Origin: an uncultured Eubacteriales bacterium | Lineage (GTDB): Bacteria; Acidobacteriota; Aminicenantia; Aminicenantales; UBA8522 | NCBI GenBank assembly: GCA_964445305.1 | Contig: CAYUKK010000005.1 | Location: forward strand, 6,614 to 70,613 | DNA: 64,000 nucleotides | Reading direction: 5' to 3' | In this document: positions 9,853-25,230 of the stretch, in pieces | How positions within the stretch are numbered: position 1 is the stretch's first letter | Layout of the letters: every line of letters starts with the position of its first letter | Position numbers and translations under genes: made by a program | Notes under the pieces: model-generated | What the model saw: only the letters and a program-made list of their open reading frames with translations | Told to the model about the DNA's origin: nothing | Databases searched by the model: none

Positions 9853-11520
9853 TCAGCGCAGCGTGCCCTCGTAGTGGGCCGTAAGCTGGCGTTTGCGAAC
9901 CTCTTCGGGCGTGTAGGAAGGAAGGAGCACGGGGGCGATCCTGTCTGTCCTTATTCTGGCCTTCTTGAGCTCCTGTTCATAAGCTGCGACATGGTCGAGG
10001 GTCAGTTGGCCCAGAGTTACGGATTTCGCGTACTCGGCCGCAAAACGCCCGGCTCGCCGACCAAAGACGTTGTAATCAAGGACCGAGTTGCCCATCAGCC
10101 TGTTCCGGCCGTGGACACCGCCCGAGGCCTCGCCAGCGACAAAAAGGCCGGGGATATTCGTTTCGCACCGGTCGTTGATTTCGATGCCGCCGTTCTGGTA
10201 GTGAAGCGAAGGATAGACGAGCATCGGCTCCTTGGTAATGTCGATGTTGTAGCGGATAAACTGCCGGACCATAGCCGGGAAATTCTTGGCCAGGTAACCC
10301 GAGCCTCGGATGATTTCGATCAGGGGAGAGTCGAGCCAGACTCCCCATCGGCCGCTCGGTGTCTGGATGCCGTTCTTTCTTTCCAGGCATTCCCGGATAA
10401 AGGCCGCACTCTCAACATCGCGGGGCTCCCGAGGGAAAACAAAGAGCTCGCCAAACTTGTTAACCGGCTGGCCTCCGGCGCCACGGATTTTTTCCGTAAT
10501 GAGGAAGCCGGCAATTTGCTCCGGGAAAACCGCTCCCGTGGGATGGTACTGAACGGAATCCATGTAGAGCAGCTTGGCCCCTGCTCGGTAGGCGATGACC
10601 AGGCCATCGCCGGTGGCTCCGTAATGGTTGGTCGTGTCGAAGCCGCGAATATGGAGACGACCATAGCCGCCGGTGGCAATGATGGTCGCTTTCGCCTTGA
10701 CCGTAAAGTATTCCTCTGTTTCCATGTTGTAAAGTATGCCGCCGGCGCAGCGGCCGCGGGTGTCGAGAAGGAGCTCGACCGTGGGCATGAACTCGAGAAT
10801 GGTGATTTTGTCCGGATGGTTGCGGACCTCGTCCATCAGGGTGCGCATGATCATGGCCCCGGTATAATCGCGGCAGGAGTGCATCCTCTTGCGGGACGTA
10901 TCGCCTCCGTGGAGAACCTGCAAGGAGCCATCGGGGTTTTTATCCCAGACGACGCCGAGATCCTCGAGCCATTTCACGACTTCGGGTCCATCCTCAGTCA
11001 GAGCCCGAACGAGTTCAGGCTTGTTGTCAAAGTGGCCGCCGCCTATGGCGTCGAGGAAATGGCGGGTCGGCGAGTCCTGGGGTTTGACCGCGGCTTGCAT
11101 CCCGCCCTGGGACATCATCGAGTTCGCATCTCCGAGCCGTAGCTTGGTCGAGATGATGCTCCGGGCTCCGTTCTGCATGGCCAGGATGGCCGCTGCGCAA
11201 CCGGCGCCTCCGCCGCCAATGATGAGGATATCGGTCTCGAAATCAGGACGGGAGAGGTCGAAAAGCTCTGGCTTGATACGGCTGTGGGATTCGAGCATGT
11301 CGGCCACTTCGGTCGTGAGGAATTCACCCTTGTTGGGTCCGATCCGGACGACGCGCCTGGCCTCCGGCCTGTAATCGGGGTGAAACCTGTTGAGAACCTC
11401 CTCTCTTTCCTCGGCTGTCATGGGCGGGAAAACTGGCTTTCCCGATTTCTCGAGCTCCAGCCGATGCGGTCTCGTCTTTTCAACGAGGTTCAGGGATTCT
11501 CTCATATATTCGGGATACAT
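9853..11520 (-). CDS. fumarate reductase / succinate dehydrogenase-family flavoprotein (FAD_binding_2), probably non-covalent FAD, with a ~95-aa N-terminal extension
   Basis: 555 aa. Dinucleotide motif DILIIGGGGAGCAAAILA. The FAD region TKLRLGDANSMMSQGGMQAA lacks the covalent-FAD His seen in Sdh/Frd RSHTVAAQGG. Last gene of the hdr-like operon. Confidence 0.7.
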   Translation of the reverse strand: MYPEYMRESLNLVEKTRPHRLELEKSGKPVFPPMTAEEREEVLNRFHPDYRPEARRVVRIGPNKGEFLTTEVADMLESHSRIKPELFDLSRPDFETDILIIGGGGAGCAAAILAMQNGARSIISTKLRLGDANSMMSQGGMQAAVKPQDSPTRHFLDAIGGGHFDNKPELVRALTEDGPEVVKWLEDLGVVWDKNPDGSLQVLHGGDTSRKRMHSCRDYTGAMIMRTLMDEVRNHPDKITILEFMPTVELLLDTRGRCAGGILYNMETEEYFTVKAKATIIATGGYGRLHIRGFDTTNHYGATGDGLVIAYRAGAKLLYMDSVQYHPTGAVFPEQIAGFLITEKIRGAGGQPVNKFGELFVFPREPRDVESAAFIRECLERKNGIQTPSGRWGVWLDSPLIEIIRGSGYLAKNFPAMVRQFIRYNIDITKEPMLVYPSLHYQNGGIEINDRCETNIPGLFVAGEASGGVHGRNRLMGNSVLDYNVFGRRAGRFAAEYAKSVTLGQLTLDHVAAYEQELKKARIRTDRIAPVLLPSYTPEEVRKRQLTAHYEGTLR

Positions 11521-11532
11521 CGCACACTCCTT

Positions 11533-12285
11533 TTATTCGATGTCTCGAGCGTAGTATCTCTTCTTGAGCTCGTCTTTTTTCAAGGCCATCAGCTCCTTGT
11601 ATTCCCTGTCGAATTTCTTCTGGCGGATTTCCTTAATTCTCTGCTCGAGCTCAGGGCTTTTCTTGGCCAGATACCGGCCATAGAGCCTCTTGGCCAGCAG
11701 GCCGACGTTGTAATGGACAATCTCCGCTGGGCAGCGGATAGCACACAGCCCGCAGCAGAGGCAGTCGAAGGAAAGGTCCATGACCTTTTCGATGTCGCCT
11801 CGAATGGCGGCCTGGATGTAATCCATCACCTCCAACCCCTGGGGGCAGGCCTTAGTGCAGGTGTTGCAGGCGACGCAGCGAAAGATCTCCGGGTAGAGCT
11901 TCTGGAAAGCCGTGACGTTCGGCTCCAGCTTCTCGATGTCGTAGACAGGCTTCTGGGCCGGGATGACGGGAAGCTGGGAAAGCCACATGCCTTCCTGGAC
12001 GAGGGTGGTGCAGGCGAGGCCGGTATAGATTTTGTAATCCCCGGGGAGGCGATAGACGGTCGCGCAAGCCCCGCAAAAGCCTTCCCGGCAGCCAGCGCCC
12101 CGCTTGATCTGATAGCCGGCGTATTCGATGGCCCCCATGATGGTGGCCTCAGCCGGAACCTTATGGGCCTTGCCCATGATGTAGACGGTGACCATTTTCT
12201 TGGGGGGTTCAGCTGGCTCGGCCTTCTTTTTCATCGGCCGTACCGGCTTGGCATCTCTTCTCGGTGTCGCTTTCTTTTTAGCCAT
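11533..12285 (-). CDS. SdhB/FrdB-type iron-sulfur subunit (2Fe-2S plus two Cys-cluster motifs) with a Lys-rich N-terminal tail
   Basis: 250 aa. GCREGFCGACAT...LAC (2Fe-2S), then CVACNTCTKACP and CLCCGLCAIRCP. Strong SD (GGGAAGGAGA) before ATG 12285. Basic tail MAKKKATPRRDAKPVRPMKKKAEPAEPPKK. Confidence 0.7.
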   Translation of the reverse strand: MAKKKATPRRDAKPVRPMKKKAEPAEPPKKMVTVYIMGKAHKVPAEATIMGAIEYAGYQIKRGAGCREGFCGACATVYRLPGDYKIYTGLACTTLVQEGMWLSQLPVIPAQKPVYDIEKLEPNVTAFQKLYPEIFRCVACNTCTKACPQGLEVMDYIQAAIRGDIEKVMDLSFDCLCCGLCAIRCPAEIVHYNVGLLAKRLYGRYLAKKSPELEQRIKEIRQKKFDREYKELMALKKDELKKRYYARDIE

Positions 12286-12321
12286 CGTTTGATCTCCTTC
12301 CCGTTACTAAAGTCTTCGGTG

Positions 12322-13146
12322 TCAGTATTCTTGCGGCAACTTCTTGAGCTCCGCCCAGGAATAGACGGGACCGTCCTTGCAGACATAGTGCTGGCCGATG
12401 TTGCAACGGCCGCACTTGCCGATACCGCATTTCATTTTGTTTTCCACGGTCGTGTAAATTTGGTTATCGGCGAACTTGAGGTCCTGAAGCGCTTTGATGA
12501 CGAACTTGATCATAATGGGAGGGCCGCAGGTGATGGCGATGGTGTTGGAAGGATCGGGCTTCTTGTCCAAGACGTTCTGGGGAACGAACCCGACGAACTC
12601 TGTCCATTCTGGCTCGGCCACGTCGATAGACAAATGGACAGTCATCTGCTTCTTCAAGTCCGCCAGCTCCTCCTTAAAAACAATATCCTTCGACGTCCTG
12701 GCGCCGTAGATAAGGGTGAGCTCGCCGTATTCTTCCTTCTTGGCCAGGGCAGTCTGGAGCACAGACCAAATGGGAGCCAGGCCGATACCGCCGCCAATAA
12801 AGACCAGGTTTTTCCCCGTCCATGCTTCAACGGGAAAGCCGTTGCCATAGGGGCCGCGAATGCCGACCAAGTCGCCGACTTCCATCTCGTGGAGGGCCGT
12901 AGTTACCCTCCCCATCTTCAAGATGCTGAACTGGAGGTAGTCCTTAACAAGGGGGGAAGAGGAGATGGAGATCATGCTCTCACCCTTGCCAAAGACGGAA
13001 AGCATGGCGCACTGGCCACAGCGGTGGCTGAAGCCGTCGCCGTTGACGAAGACAGTCCGGAATGTCTTGATCGCCCTCGCCCCTCCCACTTCTTCCTTGA
13101 TATGGATGATCTTGGCCAGCTTGGGGATGTAGACGTTAGGCTCCAT
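12322..13146 (-). CDS. FAD/NAD(P)H-binding oxidoreductase with C-terminal 2Fe-2S (sulfhydrogenase gamma HydG / AsrB / PyrK-like; FlxA-like)
   Basis: 274 aa. GIRGPYGNGFP and LVFIGGGIGLAPIWS (NAD(P)-binding). C-terminal CGIGKCGRCNIG. Confidence 0.7.
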   Translation of the reverse strand: MEPNVYIPKLAKIIHIKEEVGGARAIKTFRTVFVNGDGFSHRCGQCAMLSVFGKGESMISISSSPLVKDYLQFSILKMGRVTTALHEMEVGDLVGIRGPYGNGFPVEAWTGKNLVFIGGGIGLAPIWSVLQTALAKKEEYGELTLIYGARTSKDIVFKEELADLKKQMTVHLSIDVAEPEWTEFVGFVPQNVLDKKPDPSNTIAITCGPPIMIKFVIKALQDLKFADNQIYTTVENKMKCGIGKCGRCNIGQHYVCKDGPVYSWAELKKLPQEY

Positions 13147-14191
13147 GGTTGCTTACCTTGTCCAGGACTTTGATGATGTCGATCCCAACCGGGCAGAGGC
13201 TGATGCAACGGCCGCAGCCCGTGCACATAACCTGGTCAAAATTCTCGACAAAATAGCGAAATTTATGGAGAACCCTCTGGCGAAGACGCGACGCCTTGTC
13301 CGGTCGGGGGTTGTGGCCGGAAGAATGCATGGTGAAATCGGGGAATTGGCAGTTGTCCCATGTCCGAACCCTCTTGCCGCGCAAGGGGGATATGGAGTCG
13401 ACTTCGTCGTTGATGTCAAAGCAATGGCAGGAAGGACAGAGATAGGTGCAGATGCCGCACTGGATGCAGCTCATCGATTCCTCATCCCAGAGAGACGAAT
13501 CGAACAGGCCCTGGAGAGCTGCGGCCCTCTCCTTTTTCGTCCCCTTGACCCCGCGGACGAGCTTTTTCCTCGCTTCGGCGTGCCTGGCCTGGACTTTCTT
13601 CTTGTCGTCCGGTTGGGGCTCTTTGAAGAGTTCTCTCGCCGCCTGGACGAGCTTTTCTCCGTTGGTCGAAAGGGTTTTTACATAATAGCTATCCCCTAAG
13701 TCGGTGAGCAAGATGTCAAGCCCTTCTTCGCCGTGGGGTGAACCCTCGACGGAAAGGCAAAAGCAATTCTCCCAGGGCGGCGTGTGGCAGGCCAAACCGA
13801 TGAGCGAAGCTTGGCTCCGACGCTTCCAGTAGTAAGGGTCGGTAAAGTCGCCGCCAAAAACTCTATCCAGGAGCCAGATAGCCCGGGCATCGCAGGGCCG
13901 GACGCCGAAAATAACGAATGGCTTGCCGTTGGGCAAGACTTCTCTGACCTCAAGGGTCTCGCGATTCCCCTCGATTGTTTTCGAGAATTCGAGGAAGACT
14001 TCGCGCTGAGGAAAGATAAGCGCTTTGGCCGGAAGTGTGGTTACGGCAAGCTCGAGGCTGGCGGGGGCATGGTCGATGATTTCGTAATTCCAGCGTTCGT
14101 TTTCATCTTTTCTCGGCGCATAAACCGTCCAAGCATTGAGCTTTTCCATCCACAGAGGCAAGGACTTTTTTTCAAGTATCTTGTCCATCAT
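13136..14191 (-). CDS. iron-sulfur oxidoreductase, sulfhydrogenase beta (HydB) / AsrA-like (FlxB-like)
   Basis: Start placed at MMDKILEKK (RBS GGAG...AGGT). CIQCGICTYLCPSC and CTGCGRCISLCP motifs. Overlaps the neighbouring hydG-like gene. Confidence 0.62.
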   Translation of the reverse strand: MMDKILEKKSLPLWMEKLNAWTVYAPRKDENERWNYEIIDHAPASLELAVTTLPAKALIFPQREVFLEFSKTIEGNRETLEVREVLPNGKPFVIFGVRPCDARAIWLLDRVFGGDFTDPYYWKRRSQASLIGLACHTPPWENCFCLSVEGSPHGEEGLDILLTDLGDSYYVKTLSTNGEKLVQAARELFKEPQPDDKKKVQARHAEARKKLVRGVKGTKKERAAALQGLFDSSLWDEESMSCIQCGICTYLCPSCHCFDINDEVDSISPLRGKRVRTWDNCQFPDFTMHSSGHNPRPDKASRLRQRVLHKFRYFVENFDQVMCTGCGRCISLCPVGIDIIKVLDKVSNHGA

Positions 14192-14192
14192 C

Positions 14193-15221
14193 TTACCTGA
14201 TGAAATCTCCAGGGTCATCGTCTTTGAAGGAGGATATGAGCGGCGGCTGGGCGGGGTCGAAGCCAACCTCGTAGCCGAAGAGCTCCTTGGCCTCCTTTTC
14301 CAGCTTCTTGTTGAGAAAGCGAAGGGGAATATCCAGCGGACAGGCCCTTTCGCATTCACCGCAGTCGATGCATCGGCCAGCCAGATGAATGGCCCGAACG
14401 AGGTGGTAGACGAAATTCTCGGATGACTCGGCTGACCTCTGGATCCACTTCACCTTGTGGGCTTTTTCCTCAGCCGTCGTGTCGGCTGTGACAGCCAGGT
14501 TGATGCTGTCGACGACGCATTCATCGCAGTAACACATCGGACAAACCGACCGACAGGCATAGCAACGGATGCACTTGTCGAGTTGCTCTTTCCAGAAACG
14601 CCACCTTTCTTCCTGGCCGAGCGCTTCTATTTTCTCGACGGACCCGAAGGGCTTGTCCACCGCCTTCCTGGTTTTTTCGCCCGCCAGGATGTCGTAGAGG
14701 ACTGGAAAGTTGGCCTGGCATTCCAGGCAACGCTCGGCCAGGAGCTCCTCGACCGGGAATTCGACCTTTCCGTCCGCCGTCGTGATGAGGAACCGGTCGG
14801 CGGCCAGCTCGATTTTCTTGGGTTTTTTCCCTCCCAGCTTTCGGGCAAGCTTGTGGTCATCGATGACGCCGGCTTTCTCGCAAGAAACGCCGAGGACGTA
14901 GATATCCTGACGGTCGATGAATTTTTCTTGGAGGAGAACGACGATGGCCCGGCTGTCGCAGCCCTTGACTACTACCCCCACCGGCCTTTTGTCGGGTTGC
15001 TTCTGCCTGGCTTTTCTTCTCTTCTCGTCAACGAGGAAGCGCGCCAGGTTGTGAACGCACGTCGGGTCCCAGACGAGCTTCTCGACATCCTCTGGAGTCT
15101 TGATGAACACGGGAATGGCCTGCCAGCCGTTGCCGCCCGTCCCATAGCCGATGAGGTATTTGATTTTCCCTTCACGCAGGAGCTTCCTCGCCTCCTCCTT
15201 GAGGTCCTCGAAATTAGCCAT
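14193..15221 (-). CDS. FrhB/FdhB-family-like iron-sulfur protein (FlxC-like) with two C-terminal 4Fe-4S ferredoxin motifs
   Basis: Start at MANFEDLKEEARK; its ATG shares one base with the mvhD stop (TGATG). CIRCYACRSVCP and CIDCGECERACP. Confidence 0.5.
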   Translation of the reverse strand: MANFEDLKEEARKLLREGKIKYLIGYGTGGNGWQAIPVFIKTPEDVEKLVWDPTCVHNLARFLVDEKRRKARQKQPDKRPVGVVVKGCDSRAIVVLLQEKFIDRQDIYVLGVSCEKAGVIDDHKLARKLGGKKPKKIELAADRFLITTADGKVEFPVEELLAERCLECQANFPVLYDILAGEKTRKAVDKPFGSVEKIEALGQEERWRFWKEQLDKCIRCYACRSVCPMCYCDECVVDSINLAVTADTTAEEKAHKVKWIQRSAESSENFVYHLVRAIHLAGRCIDCGECERACPLDIPLRFLNKKLEKEAKELFGYEVGFDPAQPPLISSFKDDDPGDFIR

Positions 15222-15643
15222 CAGGGGTTTCTCCTCAATTTTGCCTGGGGACCCAGCGGTTTGAGCTCTTTGACGAAATCCTTGATCACCTGGGTATATT
15301 TGGTGCCCTCGGCAGCCGAGACCCAGGACATCTGGAACCTCTCTGGCTCCAGCCCGATGAACTCCAGGAGTTTCTTGACAAAATAGATGCGCCGCCGGGC
15401 GTAGTAGTTTCCTTTGATGTAATGGCAATCGCCAGGATGGCAGCCCGAGACGAGCACACCGTCAGCGCCCTTATTGAAGGCGGTAAAGATGTAGAGAGGG
15501 GAGACGCTCCCGGAGCACATGACCTGGATGGGGATGACGTTGGGCGGATATTCCATCCGTGATACACCGGCCATGTCGCTCCCGGCCGAGGAACACCACT
15601 TGCACAGAAAAGCAACAATTTTCGGTTCGAATTCCTCCGCCAT
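15221..15643 (-). CDS. mvhD: MvhD / FlxD-like protein (methyl-viologen-reducing hydrogenase delta-subunit family; 2Fe-2S electron-transfer partner of HdrA)
   Basis: Start at MAEEFEPKIVAFLCKWC (ATGA overlap with the hdrA stop). Conserved CKWCSSAG ... VMCSG ... SGCHPGDCHY cysteines. Confidence 0.75.
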   Translation of the reverse strand: MAEEFEPKIVAFLCKWCSSAGSDMAGVSRMEYPPNVIPIQVMCSGSVSPLYIFTAFNKGADGVLVSGCHPGDCHYIKGNYYARRRIYFVKKLLEFIGLEPERFQMSWVSAAEGTKYTQVIKDFVKELKPLGPQAKLRRNP

Positions 15644-15645
15644 CC

Positions 15646-17592
15646 TCAGCCTCCCAGACACGCGCTGATCATATCGTGAACCTGGCTCAAAGTCAGGTTC
15701 TTCACCTGGATGGCCGCCCGCAAGCAGGTGGCCGAGCAGGTTCCGCATCCCTCGCAGAGGACTTCGTTGACCTCTGCTTTATCATCCTTCAAGGCGATCG
15801 CATCATAGGGACAGACTTGGACGCACATCCCGCAGCCTGTGCAGAGGGTGGGGATGACTTTGGCCACGGTTGGGGAGTGGTAGAGTCTCTCCTGGGAGAG
15901 AACAGCCACCGCCTTGGCGGCAGCACCGCTGGCCTGGGCCACGGCCTCAGGGATGTCCTTGGGAGCTTGCGCGGCTCCCGCCAGGAAAACGCCCGAGGTG
16001 ACGCTTTCGACTGGCCGCAGCTTGGGATGCGCTTCCGCCAAGAAGCCGTCCTTGTCCAGGGCCAGTTTGAGCTTCTTGGCCAGTTCTTGGGCTCCTTTGG
16101 CCGGACGCATCGCCTGGGCGAGAACAACCATGTCGGCGGCAATTTCGATGTGTTTGCCCGTCAGCGTATCGACTCCCCAGACTTTGAGCTTGCCCTTATC
16201 TTCGAAAACCTTCGACACTTTGCCCCGCAGGTAGACGACGCCATCCTCTTCGATGGCTCTCTGGACAAATTCCTCGTAGCCTTTGCCGCCAGAGCGGATG
16301 TCAATGTAAAAGACGTACGCTTGTCCGTCATGGACATGATGCTTGTAGAGCATGGCGTGCTTGGCTGTATACATGCAGCAGATTTTGGAGCAGTAAGCGC
16401 AGTGGTTTTCAGGGTCACGCGAGCCCGAGCACTGGATGAAGACGACTTCTTTGGGTTCCTTGTGGTCAGAGGGACGGAGAATCTGGCCTCTCGTGGGGCC
16501 TGACGCAGAGCAAAGTCGCTCGAACTGAAGCCCGTCGAGAACATCAGGGTACTTCCCGTATCCATATTCGGCCATGTTCTCTTTATCATAAAGGTCATAG
16601 CCAGTGGCCACGATAATCGCCCCCACTTCTTCTTCGATGATTTGTGGCTTCATATCATAGTCAATGGCCTTGGCCTCACAGACGTCGGCGCACTTGCCGC
16701 AGGCGATGGGCAAAAGGCCGGGGCACGCGTTGATGTCGAGGGTGTAGGAAGCCGGAATGGCTTGAGGAAAGGGGATATAAATGGCTCTTCTTCCCGTCAG
16801 CCCGAGTTCAAACTCGCTGGGGACAACGATGGGGCAGACCTTCGTGCACTCATCGCAGAGGTTGCACTTATCGGGGTCGACGTAAGTCGGCTTCTTCAGG
16901 ATCTTGACTTTGAAATTGCCCACATACCCGGAGACATCCTGGACTTCGCAGTAGGTCATCAGCCTGATTTTTGGATGCTTGGAAGCCTCGACCATTTTGG
17001 GAGTAAGGATGCACTGGGAGCAATCCAGGGTGGGGAAAGTCTCGGAAAGCTGGATCATATGGCCGCCGATGGAGGGGCTTTTCTCCACGAGAATGACGTC
17101 AAACCCGCTATTGGCCAAATCAAGAGAAGCCTGGATGCCGGCAATCCCCCCGCCGATGACAAGGGCCTTGCGCGTCACGGGGACGCTGACGGCCTCGAGG
17201 GATTCATTCCGATGGACTTTTTCTACAGCGCTCTTGGTGATTTTGATGGCTTTCTGGGTGGCTTTGTCTTTTTCCTTGTGGACCCAGCTACATTGCTCCC
17301 GGATGTTGGCAATTTCGCAACGATAGGCATTCAGTCCAGCCAACCCCGAAGCCTTGCGAAAGGTTGTCTCGTGGAGAGTCGGCGAGCAGCAGGCGACGAC
17401 GACGTTGCTTAATTTTTTCTCTTTGATAGCCTGGACAATGAGGTTTTGCCCCGGGTCCGAGCACATGTAGACATAATCCTCGGCATGAACAACACCGGGA
17501 TGTTTGATGAGCTCCTGAGCGACTTTCTTGACATCCACTGTACCGGCGATATTGATGCCGCAGTGGCAGACAAAAACTCCTGTGCGTTTCAT
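15646..17592 (-). CDS. hdrA: heterodisulfide reductase subunit A (FAD, multiple Fe-S clusters)
   Basis: 648 aa. Near-colinear with methanogen HdrA: GVFVCHCGINIAGTVD, VIGGGIAGIQASLDLANSGF, CNLCDECTKVCP, FIQCSGSRD, and C-terminal CTGCGMCVQVCP / CEGCGTCSATC. Confidence 0.88.
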   Translation of the reverse strand: MKRTGVFVCHCGINIAGTVDVKKVAQELIKHPGVVHAEDYVYMCSDPGQNLIVQAIKEKKLSNVVVACCSPTLHETTFRKASGLAGLNAYRCEIANIREQCSWVHKEKDKATQKAIKITKSAVEKVHRNESLEAVSVPVTRKALVIGGGIAGIQASLDLANSGFDVILVEKSPSIGGHMIQLSETFPTLDCSQCILTPKMVEASKHPKIRLMTYCEVQDVSGYVGNFKVKILKKPTYVDPDKCNLCDECTKVCPIVVPSEFELGLTGRRAIYIPFPQAIPASYTLDINACPGLLPIACGKCADVCEAKAIDYDMKPQIIEEEVGAIIVATGYDLYDKENMAEYGYGKYPDVLDGLQFERLCSASGPTRGQILRPSDHKEPKEVVFIQCSGSRDPENHCAYCSKICCMYTAKHAMLYKHHVHDGQAYVFYIDIRSGGKGYEEFVQRAIEEDGVVYLRGKVSKVFEDKGKLKVWGVDTLTGKHIEIAADMVVLAQAMRPAKGAQELAKKLKLALDKDGFLAEAHPKLRPVESVTSGVFLAGAAQAPKDIPEAVAQASGAAAKAVAVLSQERLYHSPTVAKVIPTLCTGCGMCVQVCPYDAIALKDDKAEVNEVLCEGCGTCSATCLRAAIQVKNLTLSQVHDMISACLGG

Positions 17593-18212
17593 GGCTTACC
17601 CTTCTTGGCTTTAGCTGGAGCGAGCTTGGCCGTCGGGGTTTCTGCCTTTTCTTCAACCTGCGGTTGACCCGTCTGGCGCAGCTGTTCCAGGCCATAATCG
17701 TAACCTCTCTCGAAGGCTCGGATATTTAATTCTAAGAATCTCTTGGGGACAAGGCCAGGTAACGCCTTTTTCATCGCCTCGGGTGTGACGGCCTTCGTTA
17801 TCGCCGTGAAGAACCCGAGCATCACCAAATTGGCAAAAATCCGGTTGCCCATTTCTTCGGCGAAGCGGGTCGCGGGAATGCTGAAGACTTTGATCTTGGC
17901 CCGAGGAGGACGGATTTTGACGAGGTCCGTGTCGATGATGAGGATGCCGTCTTCCCTCAATTCGGGCTCGTATTTTTCATAGGCATCCTGGGACATAGCC
18001 ACCAAGATTTCTGGCCGAGTGATGTAGGGATAAAGAACGCGGTCATCAGAAATGACGAGCTGGGAGCTGCAGGCGCTTCCCCTTGCCTCGGGTCCGAAGC
18101 TCTGAGTCATCGTGCCGTATTTATTATCAAACAGGGAAACCGCTTTGCCGGTGATGAGGCCGCAGCGGATGATTCCCTGCCCGCCGTATCCAGAGAAACG
18201 AATTTCTTTCAT
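17589..18212 (-). CDS. 2-oxoacid:ferredoxin oxidoreductase gamma subunit
   Basis: 207 aa. MKEIRFSGYGGQGIIRCGLITGKA is the POR/KOR gamma hallmark. 4-nt overlap with the hdrA start. Confidence 0.8.
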   Translation of the reverse strand: MKEIRFSGYGGQGIIRCGLITGKAVSLFDNKYGTMTQSFGPEARGSACSSQLVISDDRVLYPYITRPEILVAMSQDAYEKYEPELREDGILIIDTDLVKIRPPRAKIKVFSIPATRFAEEMGNRIFANLVMLGFFTAITKAVTPEAMKKALPGLVPKRFLELNIRAFERGYDYGLEQLRQTGQPQVEEKAETPTAKLAPAKAKKGKP

Positions 18213-18215
18213 GGC

Positions 18216-19079
18216 TCACTCTCCATAGGGCTGATATTTATCGCCCAGGACTTTCTTCAAATGGGTATTCATGCATTCCAGGAAAGTCGGTTTTTCTCGG
18301 TCGATGAACTTACCGACAATAATCTTGCCCTGGTAGCTGATGTCCAGAGTGCGCGTATCCGCGCCGTGCTGGATGTCCGAATTCTCGTAGTAATACTTGA
18401 GGAGGTTGAGGCCGTCGCCGAGACGGTTACGGCGGGCGTAGAGGGTGACGCAGGGGGTGATGACCTCGATGAAGGAGAAACCCTTCTTGGCCAGGGCTTC
18501 CTGAATGGATTTAGTTACCCGCCGCAAGTGGAGTGCCGTCCAGCGAGCGACATAAGTAGCGCCACAAGCATCGGCTAAGTAAGGAAGATTGAAGGGATAT
18601 TCATAGTTCCCGTAGGGAGCGGTGGAAAGGTTAGCCTGGATGGGGGTGGTCGCGGCCACCTGGCCGCCGGTCATCGCGTAATTGAAATTATTGACGCAAA
18701 TGACCAGTATGTCCATGTTCCGCCGGGCGGCATGGATGAAGTGATTGCCGCCAATGCCAACAATGTCTCCATCACCGCTGAAGACAACGACCTTGAGCTC
18801 AGGGTTGCCCAGCTTCAAACCTGTGGCGAAGGGAATAGGCCGGCCATGGGTGGTGTGGAAAGAATCGAGTCGGACATAGCCGGCCACTCTCCCCGTGCAG
18901 CCGATGCCCGAAACGATAGCCACCTTATCCAGGTTAATGTTGCTCTTGCGCAGGGCGCTAGCAAAGGAGCTAACGACCGTTCCGATGCCGCATCCCGGAC
19001 ACCAGATGTGAGGAATCCGGTCCATGCGCAAGAATTCTTCCATCGGGTTTCTTTCTTCGAGCCGATCCTCTTCCCTCAT
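18216..19079 (-). CDS. 2-oxoacid:ferredoxin oxidoreductase beta subunit (TPP-binding)
   Basis: 287 aa. WCPGCGIG...GIGCTGRV...FSGDGD TPP motif. ATGA overlap with the alpha-subunit stop. Confidence 0.85.
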   Translation of the reverse strand: MREEDRLEERNPMEEFLRMDRIPHIWCPGCGIGTVVSSFASALRKSNINLDKVAIVSGIGCTGRVAGYVRLDSFHTTHGRPIPFATGLKLGNPELKVVVFSGDGDIVGIGGNHFIHAARRNMDILVICVNNFNYAMTGGQVAATTPIQANLSTAPYGNYEYPFNLPYLADACGATYVARWTALHLRRVTKSIQEALAKKGFSFIEVITPCVTLYARRNRLGDGLNLLKYYYENSDIQHGADTRTLDISYQGKIIVGKFIDREKPTFLECMNTHLKKVLGDKYQPYGE

Positions 19080-20242
19080 CGAGCTGCCTCCTTGATTGCT
19101 TTTAAAATATCATTAGGGTCATGGACCCAGCCGCCGCAGTGGGGAACACCGATGGCCGGCGCTTGGCCGAAAGCGCAGCGTTCAACCTCACGACGAATTT
19201 GGCCGAGGTTGATTTCCGGAACGACAAAAGCCTTGATTTTTTTTGCCAGTTCCCTTATCCGTTCCTCGGGGAAGGGCCAGACGGTGATCAACCGGAGTGT
19301 GCCAACTTTGATGCCCGCCTTTCTCGCTTCCTGGATCGCCTTAACAGCCACTCGCGAGGTGATCCCGTAGGAGACGACCACTACTTCAGCGCCATCTGTC
19401 TCTTCTTCCCTGTATTCAATGATTTTGTGGGCGTTTTTTCGGATTTTATCGTTGATGTGTCGGACGCACCAATCCTGGCATTCGGCGTTGATGATGGGGT
19501 AGCCTCTTTCATCGTGGGTTAAGCCGGTCGTGTGGAAACGGTAGCCATCGCCGGCTTTAACCATAAACGGCACGAGGTCTTTGTCCGGCTTGTAGGGTCG
19601 GTACTTATCCTTGGGGCCCTCATACCATTTTCTCTCTACGACCTCAATTTCGTCAGCGGGGGGAATGACAACTTTCTCGTGCATATGGCCGACGCACTCG
19701 TCGGTCATGAGGAATGTCGGCACTCGATACATTTCCGAGAGGTTGAAAGCCTTGATGGTCAGGTCGAAACACTCCTGCGGCGAATCAGGGGAGAGGGCGA
19801 TGATTTCGTAGTCGCCGTGAGAGCCCCATCTGACCTGCATCATGTCCGCTTGGCCTGTCAGAGTCGGCAGCCCCGTCGATGGGCCTCCTCGCTGGACGTT
19901 GGCGATGACGATGGGGACTTCCATCATGGCGGCGAGGCCGATGTTTTCCATCATTAAGGAAAAACCGGGTCCAGAAGTGACGGTCATGGATTTTACGCCA
20001 GCCCATGAGGCTCCGATGAGGGCGGCGACAGAGGCAATTTCGTCCTCCATCTGGATGAAAACTCCACCCACGTAGGGGATTCTTTCGGCGAATCTTTCCG
20101 CCGTTTCGGTCGAGGGGGTAATGGGATAGCCGGCGAAAAAGCGGCAACCGGCAGCTAAGGCTCCCTCGGCGATGGCAAAATCGCCGTCGAGGTAATGGGC
20201 GCCGGTGAGAACACCCTTAGGATCGGCTTTCACTTTTTTCAC
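19076..20242 (-). CDS. 2-oxoacid:ferredoxin oxidoreductase alpha subunit
   Basis: 388 aa. VLTG...AIAEGALAAGCRFFAGYPITPSTE and FLMTDECVGHMHEKV. Confidence 0.85.
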   Translation of the reverse strand: MKKVKADPKGVLTGAHYLDGDFAIAEGALAAGCRFFAGYPITPSTETAERFAERIPYVGGVFIQMEDEIASVAALIGASWAGVKSMTVTSGPGFSLMMENIGLAAMMEVPIVIANVQRGGPSTGLPTLTGQADMMQVRWGSHGDYEIIALSPDSPQECFDLTIKAFNLSEMYRVPTFLMTDECVGHMHEKVVIPPADEIEVVERKWYEGPKDKYRPYKPDKDLVPFMVKAGDGYRFHTTGLTHDERGYPIINAECQDWCVRHINDKIRKNAHKIIEYREEETDGAEVVVVSYGITSRVAVKAIQEARKAGIKVGTLRLITVWPFPEERIRELAKKIKAFVVPEINLGQIRREVERCAFGQAPAIGVPHCGGWVHDPNDILKAIKEAAR

Positions 20243-20492
20243 CTTCTTCCTCCTCTTTCATGAGAGTCACGTAGAGGGCAAATTCTGGGCAGATGGCCTC
20301 GCAAAGCTGGCAATAGCAGCAGTTTTCTTCGTGGACAATGCGGGGCGGGTGATAGCCTTTTCGGTTGAATTCCTCAGAAAGCTCAAGGACATCGCGGGGA
20401 CAATACTCAACGCAAAATCCGCATCCCTTGCAGCGTTCTCTATCGATGTGGATCTTGCCCTTTTTCGGTTTGAGGTCACCAAAATAAACCAT
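20217..20492 (-). CDS. 4Fe-4S dicluster ferredoxin, delta subunit of the four-subunit oxidoreductase
   Basis: Start at MVYFGDLKPKK (SD GAGAGGAAAC). CKGCGFCVEYCP and CCYCQLCEAICP. Confidence 0.7.
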   Translation of the reverse strand: MVYFGDLKPKKGKIHIDRERCKGCGFCVEYCPRDVLELSEEFNRKGYHPPRIVHEENCCYCQLCEAICPEFALYVTLMKEEEEGEKSESRS

Positions 20493-20500
20493 GTTTCCTC

Positions 20501-21382
20501 TCACATCAAGCTTTTTTCGACGAGCAAAGGCTTGGGGTCAATATAATGGAGGTCGAGACGCAAATCTTTCTCCGCGCAGCCGAGCGCCATAGCCAGGAGT
20601 TGAGTGAAATAGAGAACGGGCATCGTCTTGAATTCGGGATACAAGCGAGCTGTCTCTTTCTGCCGGTGGTCAAGGTTAAAAGCGCAAAGAGGGCAACTGA
20701 CAGCCACGACTTCGGCACCCTGCTCGCGAGCCGAGTTGAGGATCCTGTAAGTCCGCTCGGCCACCACCTCCGGCTTGTCGACTGTCTGGTAAGAAGCGCA
20801 GCATTCGGTCTTGTAAGGGAAGTCGACGGGCTGAGCGCCCAGAGCGGCCATCAGGTGTTCTAAAATCATCGGGTTCTCGGGATCATCGAGGCCAATTTCT
20901 TTGGGGCGGACGAGGAGGCAACCGTAGTAGCTGGCGACCTTCAGGCCCCTTAGGGGCCGCCGGACCTTCTGGGCGATCGTGTCCAGCTTGATGTCGTCGC
21001 GGAGAAGCTCGAGAAGATGGCGGATGCGGATATCCCCAGCATAGGCGATTTTCTCCTCATCCATGAACTTGTGGATTTTCGTCAAACTCTCCGGGTCGGC
21101 CTTGATTCTTTCATTGACTCTTTTGAGGGTGTTGTAGCACATCGCACAGAGGGTGAGGACGGAATCCGAGCCGCTTTCTTTAACCCGGATGAGGTTACGG
21201 ATAGAAGCAAGATGATGGATCAGGTCATCAGCAGCTAAGGAGTAAACCGTGCCGCAGCAGTTCCAGCGCTTGAGCTCTTCGACCTCAAGGCCGAGCTCTT
21301 TTAGGGAGCATAATGTCGAATCTTCAAAATTCTTAGCATTGCTCTTCAGAGTGCAGCCCGGATAATAACTTATTTTCATCAT
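20501..21382 (-). CDS. hdrB: HdrB-like CCG-domain protein (two cysteine-rich CCG domains; the second reads CCAS)
   Basis: 293 aa. YYPGCTLKS...RWNCCGTVYS...LCAMC and YYGCLLVRP...ECCASYQ...CPLCAF. Confidence 0.78.
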   Translation of the reverse strand: MMKISYYPGCTLKSNAKNFEDSTLCSLKELGLEVEELKRWNCCGTVYSLAADDLIHHLASIRNLIRVKESGSDSVLTLCAMCYNTLKRVNERIKADPESLTKIHKFMDEEKIAYAGDIRIRHLLELLRDDIKLDTIAQKVRRPLRGLKVASYYGCLLVRPKEIGLDDPENPMILEHLMAALGAQPVDFPYKTECCASYQTVDKPEVVAERTYRILNSAREQGAEVVAVSCPLCAFNLDHRQKETARLYPEFKTMPVLYFTQLLAMALGCAEKDLRLDLHYIDPKPLLVEKSLM

Positions 21383-21423
21383 AATTTCCTAAAAATATGA
21401 ATTGAACTGTTATGATGGCCATT

Positions 21424-21831
21424 TTACGAAGTGAACTTACGGAAATTGCTGATGAGGGCAATCGGTGGAACGCTCGCTTTTTCCTCATCGGAGAGCTCAC
21501 GCACCTCAACATGATCGCATCGCTTGCGGAGCAGAATCTGACGAACGGCTTCCATGACCTCAGCGATCTTGATGCCCTTTGGGCAACGCACATTGCATGT
21601 ATAGCAGGAAGCGCAGACCCAAACGGATCGAGATTGAAGGAGCTCATCTTTTAGGCCAAGCTGAGCGAACCGGATAATTTGGTTGGGCAAAATGTCCATC
21701 TGGGAAACAGCCGGACAGCCGGCCGAACACTTGCCGCACTGGTAGCAGGCCAGAAGTTTTTGGCCGCTCAATTCCTCCACTTTTTCAACAAAACTATCCC
21801 TAATCTTTTTCTTGGATAGGGTAACTCTCAT
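21424..21831 (-). CDS. hdrC: HdrC-like 2x[4Fe-4S] subunit
   Basis: CYQCGKCSAGCP and CASCYTCNVRCP. ATG at 21831 (MRVTLSKKK) is preferred over the GTG at 21849. Confidence 0.75.
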   Translation of the reverse strand: MRVTLSKKKIRDSFVEKVEELSGQKLLACYQCGKCSAGCPAVSQMDILPNQIIRFAQLGLKDELLQSRSVWVCASCYTCNVRCPKGIKIAEVMEAVRQILLRKRCDHVEVRELSDEEKASVPPIALISNFRKFTS

Positions 21832-21956
21832 TGTTATTTCTCTTTCCACCCCAAAAATTCAAGTTGGCTTGGTTTTGATGCATTTTCCTGGCCAAAAATG
21901 ACCCTTCAGTAAACCACAATTTGAATTTGCTGTCAAGAAAATCAGGAGGTGAAGTG

Positions 21957-24128
21957 CTAATGCCCCCCAAAAAACAGAAGAAGAAAGAGACACATGAGGT
22001 TGAGCAAGAAGATGCTTATCAAAACGAAAGGCAAGCCCGTCAGAGGGATGAGCAAGGTGCTCGTGAGCAAAGCCCCTCCAAAAGAACCGAGAAGGTCCAG
22101 CCCGTAGCCGAGACCGTAATCGGCTTTGGATTTAAGATAGAGCTGGTTCGAGACAATGAAGAGGTCGCCTCCCAGATAACCCAGGGCGAAGAGGATGAGA
22201 AAAGCCAGAACCTCGGGCGGTCTTGCCCGCATCATTATTAGGAAAACGAGAAGAAGGAAAAGAAATCCAGCCTGGATAAGAGCCAACTGGCGGAAGGAGA
22301 AACTCCGTTTTTTCGACCTGACCCAGCTTCCTATATAAAGCCCGAGCATAAAAATGGAGAGGAGGAGGGCAATAGCGCCATAAAGGTATCCATAAAGAGC
22401 TTGAAACCAGACGAGGAGGATGATTTCTGTGATGATCGTCGTAAAACCCATGACGGCCAAGGGGACAAGCGGCAATGGACTTTTCTTCTTCCGGATGAGC
22501 AGCCAAACGGAAACAAGGCAAAAAAAGGCCAGGGGGAGAGTAAGAAGCCAGAGGGGAGAGAGTTGGGAGAAATACTTGAGGCCCTTGACTTCGAGACCGC
22601 GGAAATGCGCGCTCCAGAGCATGATCTGGAAATAGAAACTGATGGGGGCCAAGTCCGTGTTGACCCGGCTCTGTCTCGATTTCATCGCTGTCTCCAGTCG
22701 GTCGCGGCGCAGAGGATGGAGCCGGGATAAAAGAGAAGAGCGAGTGAAATACAGGGTCTCGAGGCCAAGGGCTTCCACCCTTTGGGCGAGCACTTCAGGC
22801 TCCACCTGAATCGACTCCGAGGAGCCAAGGAAAACATTCCTGGCGCCAGGAATGACTTCGACATGGGGAAAGACTTCTTTCAGGGTGTGGTAAAGAGAAG
22901 CTAAGAATAGCTCCAGCTCGCCTCCGATGTAGTCTTCCGCCGAGGCGACAATGAAGGAGAGAACCCCAGCTGAAGTGAGCTTTCTCTTGGCCAGGCGGAA
23001 GAATTCAAGGGTATAAAATCGATTGAGTTGGGCCGTGCTGGGATCGGGCAAGGAAATGAGAATGCCATCGTAGGAATTGTCGGCCTTTTGGAGGAAAGCG
23101 CGTCCATCCTCAAAGAAAAGATGAACCCGGGCGTCGCTCAAGGCCCTTTTTTCTTCTTCAGGGAGGAAGAGCCTGGAGAGTTGGATTACTTCCGGGTCGA
23201 GTTCGACATAATCGACCCGGGCTATGGGGTATTTGAGGATCTCCATCAACGTTCCTCCAGCCCCGCCGCCAATGAGGAGGATTCTTTCAGCTTCCGGTTT
23301 CTGAAGGAGGGCGAAATGGACAGATTCTTCAGCCGAAGCCCGATCAGGATGGGAATAAACAGGCGCGCTATTGCTATAAAGAGAGGTCTGTTCCTCGGTC
23401 TTGATGACCTGAAGCTTTCCGTACCGGGTGTCCCGGCTGGCCAGAAGATGGTAGGGCCGCCAGTAAAGCCTTTGTGTGGGCATATCGAGAAAGATGAACA
23501 CGGTGAGAACAAGTGTCAGAAGAGCCGGGATAACCAGCCTTTTCTTTTTGTCGACGAGCGAAAAGAGAAGCCACGTCCCCGCTCCTCCAATTAAGGCGGC
23601 TGCCTGCCAGGCACTGAAATGGGGCAGGAAGAGAAAATAGACCGTTAGCCCGGCGATGGTGGCTCCCAGTGATTCGAGCCTGTAAACGTCGTTGATTCGT
23701 CCGGAAGCTTTCCCAACGTTGAGGACAAAGAGCATTCCGAGAGGGAAACTGACGAGAAGACAGAGGCCGAAAGAAAGCCCGAGGACGGGCAGGAGGCCTA
23801 TGAGTTCACCTGGGAGGACCCGCATGATGAAACGGAAAACCCGCACCCCGGCCAGAGAAAGGACGATAAAAAAGATGACCCCATAATAGATTTGGGAGAG
23901 GTTTTTTTGAAGGAAAGACCAGCGGGAAGCAAGAATGCTTCCCAAGCCCCCCCAGAGGAGCCAGGATGCCAAGACGACCCCGAAGGTCAGCTCATTGCCG
24001 TAGAAATGGGCACTGAACTCCCGAAGGAGGAGAATCTGGGAGGAGGTTGCCAAAAATCCCAGGAGAAAAGGGGGGAAGGAATCCTTTAAGCCCAGATTCC
24101 AGGGATGGGGTTTTGGCAGAAGCGGCAT
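21957..24128 (-). CDS. polytopic membrane protein with a central spermidine-synthase-like (SpeE / class I MTase-fold aminopropyltransferase) domain
   Basis: 723 aa with many predicted TM helices at both ends. Central ILLIGGGAGGTLMEILKYP...VDYVELDPEVI...LISLPDP matches the SpeE-fold dinucleotide motif. Confidence 0.6.
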   Translation of the reverse strand: MPLLPKPHPWNLGLKDSFPPFLLGFLATSSQILLLREFSAHFYGNELTFGVVLASWLLWGGLGSILASRWSFLQKNLSQIYYGVIFFIVLSLAGVRVFRFIMRVLPGELIGLLPVLGLSFGLCLLVSFPLGMLFVLNVGKASGRINDVYRLESLGATIAGLTVYFLFLPHFSAWQAAALIGGAGTWLLFSLVDKKKRLVIPALLTLVLTVFIFLDMPTQRLYWRPYHLLASRDTRYGKLQVIKTEEQTSLYSNSAPVYSHPDRASAEESVHFALLQKPEAERILLIGGGAGGTLMEILKYPIARVDYVELDPEVIQLSRLFLPEEEKRALSDARVHLFFEDGRAFLQKADNSYDGILISLPDPSTAQLNRFYTLEFFRLAKRKLTSAGVLSFIVASAEDYIGGELELFLASLYHTLKEVFPHVEVIPGARNVFLGSSESIQVEPEVLAQRVEALGLETLYFTRSSLLSRLHPLRRDRLETAMKSRQSRVNTDLAPISFYFQIMLWSAHFRGLEVKGLKYFSQLSPLWLLTLPLAFFCLVSVWLLIRKKKSPLPLVPLAVMGFTTIITEIILLVWFQALYGYLYGAIALLLSIFMLGLYIGSWVRSKKRSFSFRQLALIQAGFLFLLLVFLIMMRARPPEVLAFLILFALGYLGGDLFIVSNQLYLKSKADYGLGYGLDLLGSFGGALLTSTLLIPLTGLPFVLISIFLLNLMCLFLLLFFGGH

Positions 24129-25207: not shown

Positions 25208-25230
25208 GAGTAGCCTACCGTTTAATATTA

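Follow-up and report, generated by a model that had tools for sequence, protein, structure and literature searches.

Related systems and the Aminicenantes locus

Rubin-Blum, Dubilier and Kleiner (2019) described korABCD and tfrAB genes co-localised with, and interspersed among, flxABCD–hdrABC in the reductive tricarboxylic acid (rTCA) gene clusters of tubeworm symbionts (Candidatus Endoriftia persephone and relatives), Thioflavicoccus mobilis and the aquifer metagenome-assembled genome (MAG) RIFOXYD12_FULL_61_37 (PMC6315080). Between hdrBC and hdrA, beside tfrAB, genes for a four-subunit 2-oxoglutarate:ferredoxin oxidoreductase (OGOR) have already been described, and bifurcation of electrons from NADH to OGOR and fumarate reductase has been proposed (PMC6315080, PMC11636981); operon-like co-expression in Endoriftia was reported by Mitchell et al. 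(2024) (PMC11636981). The same bifurcation proposal was made by Koendjbiharie et al. (2020) for the ‘succinate operon’ of Pseudoclostridium thermosuccinogenes, which comprises fumarase, Flx–Hdr and fumarate reductase and is up-regulated in this succinate-excreting organism (PMC7282089). Here we describe a 13-gene cluster of this kind, hdrCB–korDABG–hdrA–flxDCBA–frdBA, on the minus strand of a 64,000-nucleotide stretch (the window; contig CAYUKK010000005.1, positions 6,614 to 70,613) from an uncultured Aminicenantes bacterium. The best explanation of the cluster, which we hold with moderate confidence, is a NAD(P)H-dependent, flavin-based electron-bifurcating fumarate reductase feeding a 2-oxoglutarate synthase, a mechanism read from the encoded sequences.

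The cluster occupies 13 consecutive open reading frames (ORFs) at positions 9853–21849, all where the original prediction had placed them: hdrC, hdrB, korD, korA, korB, korG, hdrA, flxD (mvhD), flxC, flxB, flxA, frdB and frdA. Scans with Pfam and NCBIfam models assigned each of the 13 proteins to a family with a strong match, and cysteine positions gave the expected cofactor motifs, bearing out the predicted order and identities. The accompanying claims that known HdrA systems carry no 2-oxoacid:ferredoxin oxidoreductase inside the hdr genes and do not end in a Tfr/Frd pair are contradicted by the published clusters (PMC6315080 and PMC11636981 for both, PMC7282089 also for the second). Neither the arrangement nor the hypothesis is new, both having appeared in print in 2019 and 2024; what is new is the phylum and the absence of an rTCA context. 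The Aminicenantes literature that was searched held no mention of the cluster.

Compared protein by protein, the window cluster is the Aminicenantes orthologue of the published Flx–Hdr/KorABCD/TfrAB-like module. It shares with the tubeworm-symbiont type the same 13 families, the same internal order (hdrC–hdrB–korDABG–hdrA–flxD–flxC–flxB–flxA) and the same proposed function, and differs in the position of frdBA, which lies at the 3′ end in the window but 5′ of hdrC in Proteobacteria. A gammaproteobacterial cluster with the published arrangement, that of the FrdA protein P0292, reads idh, acn, aclA, aclB, frdB, frdA, rubrerythrin, hdrC, hdrB, korD, korA, korB, korG, hdrA, flxD, flxC, flxB, flxA. 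Over its full 555 residues the window FrdA shares 73% identity with P0292, and the other 12 proteins are 50–69% identical to their Gallionella counterparts, which suggests that the whole block was passed between phyla together. When the Gallionella-type FrdA served as query, the matches were Beta- and Gammaproteobacteria (Thiodictyon, Sulfuricellaceae, Rhodocyclaceae) at 77–94% identity, followed by Aminicenantes at 73–76%, and a rough neighbour-joining tree, indicative only and without bootstrap, groups the Aminicenantes and proteobacterial FrdA clades as sisters. A candidate donor (the ‘distant bacterial clade’) of the proteobacterial module is an Aminicenantes-like lineage. Many Candidatus Aminicenantes MAGs encode proteins 86–97% identical to the window FrdA, and an identical FrdA, with the same neighbours, is present on several JGI metagenome contigs.

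The proteobacterial type carries a gene of approximately 175 codons between frdA and hdrC (in the P0292 context and in loci L011 and L012) that the window operon lacks; its product in P0292 is a rubrerythrin by Pfam and may provide oxygen or peroxide defence for Fe–S enzymes in microaerobic hosts. The tubeworm-symbiont cluster sits among aclAB, acn, idh and pntAB or rnf in a sulfur-oxidising autotroph, whereas the window cluster stands alone between unrelated genes in an uncultured, presumably fermentative and heterotrophic Aminicenantes.

Other described systems match the window in part. In the P. thermosuccinogenes operon the seven Flx–Hdr genes are directly followed by a two-gene fumarate reductase, as in the window, but fumarase is present and kor absent, whereas the window has kor and no fumarase. 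FlxABCD–HdrABC of Desulfovibrio vulgaris Hildenborough (Ramos et al. 2015, as cited in PMC7282089 and PMC6315080) has the same seven subunit types and cofactor motifs; it is linked to alcohol dehydrogenase (adh) or DsrC, whereas neither adh nor dsrC lies in or beside the window cluster, where Kor and Frd are built in. In MvhAGD–HdrABC the acceptor is the heterodisulfide of coenzymes M and B (CoM-S-S-CoB), whereas in the window it is presumably fumarate, reached through FrdAB, with NAD(P)H as the likely donor through FlxABC; the MvhAG-like hydrogenase donor of methanogens recurs in relatives of the window cluster. TfrA of Methanothermobacter TfrAB (Heim et al. 1998, as cited in PMC6315080) is the best curated model for the window FrdA. 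TfrB unites SdhB-like, HdrC-like and HdrB-like CCG parts in one polypeptide, whereas the window encodes FrdB, HdrC and HdrB separately; the window scores lie far below the equivalog cut-offs, FrdA has an N-terminal extension and lacks a C-terminal domain, and this bacterium would not be expected to have CoM or CoB thiols. Tfr and Kor belong to the reductive branch of methanogens, where they make 2-oxoglutarate. A soluble, five-subunit, NADH-dependent fumarate reductase is reported for Hydrogenobacter thermophilus (Miura et al. 2008, as cited in PMC13147460). It serves the rTCA cycle and is reported to include an Hdr-like subunit. The likeness of that enzyme is one of description; its subunit set is a different one, without HdrA, MvhD, FlxABC or an embedded OGOR.

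The Flx and Hdr subunits

All seven Flx/Hdr subunit types (FlxABCD and HdrABC) are present in the cluster, and flavin-based electron bifurcation by this part is plausible from its composition. HdrA (15646–17592, on the minus strand like all genes of the cluster; 648 residues), the presumed bifurcation site, scored 835 bits against the NCBIfam model HdrA2 over model positions 1–640 and 705 bits against Methanothermococcus HdrA (PDB 5odc, from MvhAGD–HdrABC), to which it aligns along its full length (residues 3–638). It is made up of N-terminal Fe–S, FAD-containing, inserted ferredoxin and C-terminal ferredoxin domains. FlxD (MvhD; 15221–15643, 140 residues, Pfam FlpD 5.6e-53) aligns with the C-terminal MvhD part of the same model, positions 644–775, and the two proteins jointly reproduce the HdrA2 architecture known from HdrA2B2C2 of Methanosarcina. 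FlxD would be the [2Fe–2S] connector between the donor module and HdrA.

Electrons presumably enter at FlxA (12322–13146, 274 residues), an AsrB/HydG/PyrK-like protein with NAD(P)H and FAD binding and a [2Fe–2S] site (NAD_binding_1 2.6e-19, DHODB_Fe-S_bind 5.7e-9; PRK08345 245 bits, under the cut-off). FlxB (13136–14191, 351 residues, Fer4_22 1.4e-33) is an AsrA/HydB-like Fe–S protein that scored 191 bits with sulfhydrogenase HydB and 139 bits with AsrA, both under the cut-offs. FlxC (14193–15221, 342 residues), with two [4Fe–4S] sites, matched Fer4-type Pfam families only, and its orthologues occupy the same position in proteobacterial clusters; the ‘FrhB-like’ label first attached to it was dropped, as FrhB_FdhB_N matched at E = 0.025 and failed the Pfam cut-off.

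HdrC (21424–21831) comprises 135 residues from an ATG at 21831, with an alternative GTG at 21849, and contains two [4Fe–4S] motifs (Cys 29/32/35/39 and 73/76/79/83; Pfam Fer4_8 3.3e-11; NCBIfam CoB_CoM_SS_C 84 bits, under the cut-off). HdrB (20501–21382, 293 residues; Pfam CCG 1.4e-20 in two stretches) has two complete CCG motifs, C10/C42/C43/C79/C82 and C155/C194/C195/C230/C233. It scored 178 bits against the NCBIfam HdrB model and 162 bits against SdhE (MFR anchor), both under the respective cut-offs.

The FrdBA pair

FrdA (9853–11520, 555 residues; FAD_binding_2 3.8e-77) is a fumarate-reductase-type flavoprotein with a conserved N-terminal extension of approximately 95 residues and no Succ_DH_flav_C match, that is, without the SdhA C-terminal domain. 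In the alignment, its H326, T342, E343, R367, H440 and R474 correspond to H232, T244, E245, R287, H355 and R390 of Escherichia coli FrdA, and Asn133 takes the position of His44, the residue that binds FAD covalently in the E. coli protein. All of these, Asn133 included, are invariant among the aligned family representatives except T342, which varies. Variants of E. coli FrdA at His44 favour fumarate reduction over succinate oxidation; non-covalent FAD has a lower flavin potential, and in such variants succinate oxidation is abolished. The non-covalent FAD site thus favours the reductive direction, and from the residues and the gene context we infer that the substrate is fumarate.

FrdB (11533–12285, 250 residues; Pfam Fer4_9/Fer4_8, with a weak Fer2 match) is an SdhB-like Fe–S subunit containing a CX4CX2C...C [2Fe–2S] motif (C66/71/74/92) and two CxxCxxCxxxCP motifs; neither Pfam nor NCBIfam models detected a CCG domain in it. 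The TfrB model is divided among three window proteins: FrdB matches its positions 21–177 (27 bits), HdrC 114–241 (33 bits) and HdrB 262–486 (44 bits). The N-terminal tail of FrdB, approximately 30 residues encoded at 12196–12285, is rich in Lys, Pro and Ala: MAKKKATPRRDAKPVRPMKKKAEPAEPPKK.

Two other identities for the flavoprotein were considered and rejected. Assignment to quinone-linked complex II (Sdh/Frd) is at odds with the cluster, from which the covalent-FAD His, the SdhA C-terminal domain and membrane anchors are all absent; no membrane subunit gene occurs in it. Assignment to L-aspartate oxidase is at odds with a score of 263 bits against NadB (TIGR00551; cut-off 452.75), with the FrdB partner and with the outgroups. 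The outgroup clusters nearest to FrdA (36–41% identity) are TfrA-like or actinobacterial Frd/Sdh-like, with the partial exception of a short protein, P0144 (NadB 257 bits, TfrA 252 bits). Models and outgroups alike place the flavoprotein with TfrA, Frd and Sdh types, not in the L-aspartate oxidase clade that the original prediction had named as an outcome that would speak against it.

A broader form of this doubt, that the protein acts as an L-aspartate oxidase or on another enoate or dicarboxylate as a reductase, draws on its failure to reach any NCBIfam equivalog cut-off, on a NadB score that is moderately lower than that for TfrA (263 versus 337 bits), and on the unusual N-terminal extension and missing SdhA C-terminal domain. 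Catalytic residues are also common to NadB and Frd. NadB, however, has no SdhB-like partner, whereas such a partner adjoins the flavoprotein in 79 of the 80 related loci surveyed below and is fused to it in P0122; fumarase, succinyl-CoA synthetase and malic enzyme are recurrent neighbours; and the nearest outgroup clusters are of TfrA or Frd/Sdh types. A different substrate is, on balance, highly improbable.

The 2-oxoacid:ferredoxin oxidoreductase

Four separate Kor subunits, with POR_N/PFOR_II, TPP_enzyme_C, POR and 2×[4Fe–4S] domains, are encoded between hdrB and hdrA. The alpha subunit KorA (19076–20242, 388 residues; POR_N 1.9e-72, PFOR_II) scored 569 bits against NF006412 (2-oxoacid:acceptor oxidoreductase alpha), over the cut-off of 411. 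Among structures it matched 1yd7 (393 bits), the 2-oxoglutarate synthase 8ys5 (291 bits) and MmOGOR of Magnetococcus (6n2n, 218 bits), with less than 60 bits against pyruvate:ferredoxin oxidoreductase and oxalate oxidoreductase structures. The thiamine-diphosphate-binding beta subunit KorB (18216–19079, 287 residues; TPP_enzyme_C 4.8e-32) has 2-oxoglutarate ferredoxin oxidoreductase beta as its best NCBIfam match. KorD, the ferredoxin-like delta subunit (20217–20504, starting at GTG 20504 or ATG 20492; Pfam Fer4 3.4e-12), with its two [4Fe–4S] sites, best matches OGOR_delta, and the gamma subunit KorG (17589–18212, 207 residues; POR 1.2e-33) scored 198 bits with NF006323, for which the cut-off is 235. 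Models specific for 2-oxoglutarate are thus the best or near-best among the specific models, and succinyl-CoA synthetase genes (sucCD) lie directly beside kor in related loci; from scores and context we infer 2-oxoglutarate/succinyl-CoA as the likely substrate pair.

The C-terminal tail of KorG (17589–17690) is rich in Lys, Ala and Pro, ends in ...EEKAETPTAKLAPAKAKKGKP and resembles the N-terminal tail of FrdB; related KorG proteins are approximately 20 residues shorter (median 187 residues).

Linkage of frd, hdr and kor across phyla

An alignment of the FrdA family, searched against one genome per species, identified at least 597 loci, and the best 80 of these, all full length and at least 54% identical, were examined. 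Neighbours were counted by tblastn and their families confirmed with Pfam; the counts are lower bounds because many contigs are broken. The hosts include Aminicenantes, Gallionellaceae and other Nitrosomonadales, Alphaproteobacteria, Cloacimonadota, Neomarinimicrobiota, WOR-3, Chloroflexota, Thermodesulfobacteriota, Spirochaetota and Bacillota, together with Thermoplasmatota, Theionarchaea, Bathyarchaeia and others.

Near frdA, frdB was found in 79 of the 80 loci, hdrB or hdrC in 60, hdrA in 49, mvhD/flxD in 39, flxA or flxB in 22 and an MvhA/G-like [NiFe] hydrogenase in 14. korA or korB accompanied frdA in 29 loci, 26 of them also with hdrA, and hdrA directly followed korG in 16, an adjacency that the original prediction had proposed to look for. 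Succinyl-CoA synthetase and class-I fumarase were each present in 18 loci and malic enzyme in 11, and the neighbouring genes cover the reductive branch from malate through fumarate, succinate and succinyl-CoA to 2-oxoglutarate.

At least five gene orders occur in at least seven phyla of Bacteria and Archaea. The Aminicenantes order, hdrCB–korDABG–hdrA–flxDCBA–frdBA, gives way to frdBA–hdrCB–korDABG–hdrA–flxDCB in Gallionella, korDABG–hdrCB–hdrA–mvhD–frdBA–mvhGA in Cloacimonadota, korDABG–hdrA–mvhD–(mvhGA)–hdrCB–frdBA in Thermoplasmata and Fraserbacteria, fumAB–hdrCB–hdrA–flxDCBA–frdBA–sucCD–korDABG in Thermodesulfobacteriota and hdrBC–hdrA–flxDCBA–frdBA–malic enzyme in a Clostridium (L075, FrdA 54% identity). 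Because the linkage is kept despite this reshuffling across both domains, it indicates a functional connection of frd, hdr and kor as judged from gene neighbourhoods, and not inherited synteny.

In hydrogenase-type loci (L021, L023–L026, L036, L042, L059, L070, L072, L074, L079 and L080), an MvhA/MvhG-like hydrogenase replaces FlxABC, often together with a HycI-type protease; the hosts are Cloacimonadota, Neomarinimicrobiota, Thermoplasmata, Anaerolineae and Thermotogae-labelled MAGs. The donor module would thus be interchangeable, with electrons supplied either by NADH through FlxABC or by a [NiFe] hydrogenase, and these loci imply a putative H2-driven version of the fumarate reductase/Kor module. 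A 2025 Cloacimonadota paper annotates MvhADG–HdrABC and leaves the adjacent Frd and Kor genes unmentioned (PMC12590816). Several loci contain hdrCB–frdBA without hdrA. In the Aminicenantes MAG Zod_Metabat.480 (L007) the order is hdrC–hdrB–korDABG–hdrA–flxD–frdB–frdA, without flxC, flxB and flxA, and the NADH module is dispensable there or encoded elsewhere, even within Aminicenantes. Fused forms are FrdB–FrdA (P0122, 727 residues), HdrA–MvhD (approximately 790 residues, HdrA2-like), FlxD–FlxC and KorB–KorG; the fusion-bearing loci besides P0122 are L027, L050, L056 and L054.

Four Thermodesulfobacteriota loci (L043, L048, L053 and L073) hold almost the entire reductive branch in one string of genes, followed by a second, distant FrdA-like gene (approximately 32% identity) and, in the first three, by an HdrB-like gene (approximately 31%). 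In L014, L017 and L019 (Alphaproteobacteria/Rhodomicrobiaceae) and L018 (Ignavibacteria), frdBA is approximately 70% identical to that of the window and occurs with sucCD, with no hdrA or kor nearby; hdrC is present in the three alphaproteobacterial loci, and large ORFs (approximately 740–1140 residues) precede the genes of the frdBA region in all four.

Proposed electron flow

In the proposed bifurcation, NAD(P)H would be oxidised by FlxA and its electrons passed through FlxB and FlxC, and then the [2Fe–2S] site of FlxD, to the FAD of HdrA, where each pair would be split. The high-potential electron would travel by way of HdrC and HdrB to FrdB and on to the non-covalent FAD of FrdA, reducing fumarate to succinate, while the low-potential electron would exit HdrA at its ferredoxin domains and pass to ferredoxin or straight to KorD. 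Kor would use the low-potential electrons to convert succinyl-CoA and CO2 to 2-oxoglutarate, giving the predicted net reaction 2 NADH + fumarate + succinyl-CoA + CO2 → 2 NAD+ + succinate + 2-oxoglutarate + CoA. The relevant potentials are −320 mV for NADH, approximately +30 mV for fumarate/succinate and approximately −500 mV for succinyl-CoA + CO2/2-oxoglutarate. From these textbook values the net reaction with two NADH would be exergonic by roughly 30 kJ (−30 kJ). The stoichiometry would also be matched, since each fumarate reduced would supply exactly the two low-potential electrons that are consumed when the resulting succinyl-CoA is carboxylated, the next-but-one step of the reductive branch. 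The original prediction of a branch from HdrA to ferredoxin and Kor and another through HdrBC to fumarate reductase is therefore thermodynamically sound, and it agrees with the linkage of Frd, Hdr, Kor and reductive-branch genes, in shuffled orders, across many phyla.

HdrBC probably wires electrons to FrdAB in the manner of a split TfrB and does not reduce a free heterodisulfide, because hdrCB–frdBA occurs without hdrA and because HdrC, HdrB and FrdB cover the TfrB model between them; HdrA and the donor module would then be additions to an hdrCB–frdBA core. A free thiol or disulfide intermediate seems unnecessary: the cluster encodes one CCG protein only, FrdB lacks such a domain and a gene for a thiol carrier is missing. 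In the alternative that does invoke such an intermediate, Flx–Hdr would bifurcate electrons from NADH to free ferredoxin and a soluble disulfide (a DsrC-like protein or a low-molecular-weight heterodisulfide), a Tfr-like FrdAB would reoxidise the resulting thiol and so reduce fumarate, and Kor would draw on the ferredoxin pool. The CCG motifs of methanogen HdrB (5odc) form disulfide-reducing non-cubane clusters. Both motifs are retained complete in the window HdrB; of the two variants put forward in PMC6315080 and PMC11636981, moreover, a thiol shuttle is one, and DsrC is the presumed target of the D. vulgaris Flx–Hdr (Ramos et al. 2015, as cited in PMC6315080). With one CCG protein, however, disulfide reduction and thiol oxidation would both fall to a single site. 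Neither in nor beside the cluster is there a DsrC-like or thiol-carrier gene, and hdrCB accompanies frdBA even where hdrA is missing, as for a split TfrB wired to its flavoprotein. We regard the shuttle as quite unlikely.

The same machinery could in principle run backwards. In an oxidative segment of an anaerobic TCA pathway, Kor would oxidise 2-oxoglutarate and reduce ferredoxin, HdrA would join these low-potential electrons with high-potential ones taken from succinate by FrdAB, and two NAD+ would be reduced through Flx. Flavin-based bifurcating enzymes are generally reversible. The stoichiometry and energetics of such confurcation should mirror those of the forward model; Aminicenantes and Cloacimonadota are regarded as fermenters of amino acids and organic acids and as possible syntrophs, and the hydrogenase-linked variants could then make H2. 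If true, it would free a fermenter or syntroph from the thermodynamic barrier to oxidising succinate. The replacement of the covalent-FAD His by Asn in every aligned family member speaks against this direction, as do the orthologous clusters of autotrophs, which adjoin ATP-citrate lyase and the reductive cycle (P0292 context; PMC6315080), and the excretion of succinate by P. thermosuccinogenes (PMC7282089). Confurcation as the main role appears unlikely.

Several observations weigh against a bifurcating fumarate reductase coupled to 2-oxoglutarate synthesis. FrdA scored 336.6 bits with TfrA (NF004900), against a cut-off of 718 and over model positions 6–427 of 546, and the Kor subunits fail the 2-oxoglutarate-specific equivalog cut-offs (alpha 386 versus 579 bits, beta 229 versus 364, delta 76 versus 125); the substrates are read from residues, scores and context, and transcription as one unit from spacing. 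The window offers no rTCA context, with no TCA enzyme among its ORFs of at least 390 residues and no ATP-citrate lyase in its 64 kb, and the literature describes Aminicenantes as fermentative heterotrophs. In Endoriftia, the expression pattern of tfrAB differs somewhat from that of the rest of the cluster (PMC11636981); a survey of rTCA genomes from 2026 continues to present the complex as a suggestion and reports it absent from the other autotrophs examined (PMC13147460); and no biochemical characterisation of a bifurcating fumarate reductase was found in the searchable literature up to April 2026. Some loci, L007 among them, have neither FlxCBA nor a hydrogenase within 10 kb, so that the donor is not always obvious. 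Fusions of Kor with Hdr or Frd were found in none of the 80 loci, and Kor may simply share a ferredoxin pool.

The last two points also bear on the idea that Kor is itself the donor, the whole acting as a 2-oxoglutarate:fumarate oxidoreductase, or that three enzyme sets are merely co-regulated and use common cofactor pools. L007 and L056 have kor, hdrA–mvhD, hdrCB and frdBA with no Flx or hydrogenase within reach, which fits this idea, as does the lack of fusions, and pathway genes are often clustered without complex formation. Passing electrons at −500 mV directly to fumarate would, however, waste approximately 100 kJ per pair and leave HdrA unneeded. Aminicenantes and Proteobacteria both retain kor at a site between hdrB and hdrA, and korG adjoins hdrA in the 16 loci noted above; FlxABC is present in the window, and most long loci have a donor module. 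Both forms of this explanation are very unlikely.

The operon could serve succinate fermentation with a gain of ferredoxin, 2-oxoglutarate biosynthesis or carbon fixation, or it could work as the reverse confurcation. A more far-reaching version, which we put forward tentatively and consider doubtful as a whole, would make the 13 proteins one soluble machine, with HdrA reducing KorD directly without free ferredoxin, HdrBC acting as a pure wire without thiol, and NADH driving two steps of the rTCA branch; such a machine would be widespread and donor-swappable (NADH or H2) in uncultured anaerobic Bacteria and Archaea, well past the handful of sulfur-oxidising Gammaproteobacteria in which it was first seen, the Aminicenantes form being the most compact. 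The cluster touches on how NADH-driven fumarate reduction can conserve energy without a membrane and where the low-potential electrons for succinyl-CoA carboxylation come from; if the coupling is true, both would be answered with matched stoichiometry and running the rTCA cycle would cost less energy. The module is no curiosity of tubeworm symbionts, being common in many uncultured anaerobic phyla in what appear to be NADH- or H2-driven forms. Useful additions to the known type are its wide distribution, the exchange of NADH and H2 modules as donors and the hdrCB–frdBA core. At 12 kb and 13 genes with no extras, the Aminicenantes version would make a convenient template for heterologous expression.

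Transcription signals and neighbouring genes

From hdrC to frdA, and with the best start codons, the junctions measure +41, −4, −26, −4, +3, −4, +2, −1, +1, −11, +36 and +12 nucleotides (nt; plus, gap; minus, overlap). The predicted tight spacing holds, as the largest gap within the cluster is 41 nt, whereas overlaps of 11 and 26 nt exceed the ‘1–4 nt’ originally given. Transcription of the 13 genes as one unit is plausible from this spacing. Promoter-like and terminator-like matches to consensus inside the cluster were at chance level relative to shuffled sequence, a result that weighs neither for nor against internal signals.

A promoter-like site (21908–21936, minus strand), read from the sequence, lies in the 107-nt gap 5′ of hdrC. 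It consists of TTGACA (21936–21931), a 17-nt spacer and TGg-TTTACT (−10 hexamer at 21913–21908), and the T at position 2 of the −10 hexamer kept it out of the matches of the consensus scan. At the other end, the approximately 400 nt 3′ of frdA are AT-rich and non-coding, without a convincing terminator; a hairpin there was no better than those in shuffled sequences (z = −1.09) and had no U-run. An Rfam scan of the window matched no RNA family.

The flanking genes are unrelated to the 13, which makes the cluster a bounded unit. Upstream, the immediate neighbour encodes a 723-residue multi-pass membrane protein with a spermidine-synthase domain; it belongs to a co-directional group 5′ of the cluster (21957–26127, minus strand) that also encodes a radical-SAM protein and a DUF362 protein and whose link to the operon is not evident. 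Downstream, a PilZ-domain gene is followed by glyQS and glycine-cleavage genes (GcvP). The PilZ gene (9008–9448, minus strand), approximately 400 nt beyond the operon, occupies the same position in the Aminicenantes loci L003, L005–L008 and L022, and the 206-residue ORF listed for it probably has a later start, at MDESKIERRACVRF.

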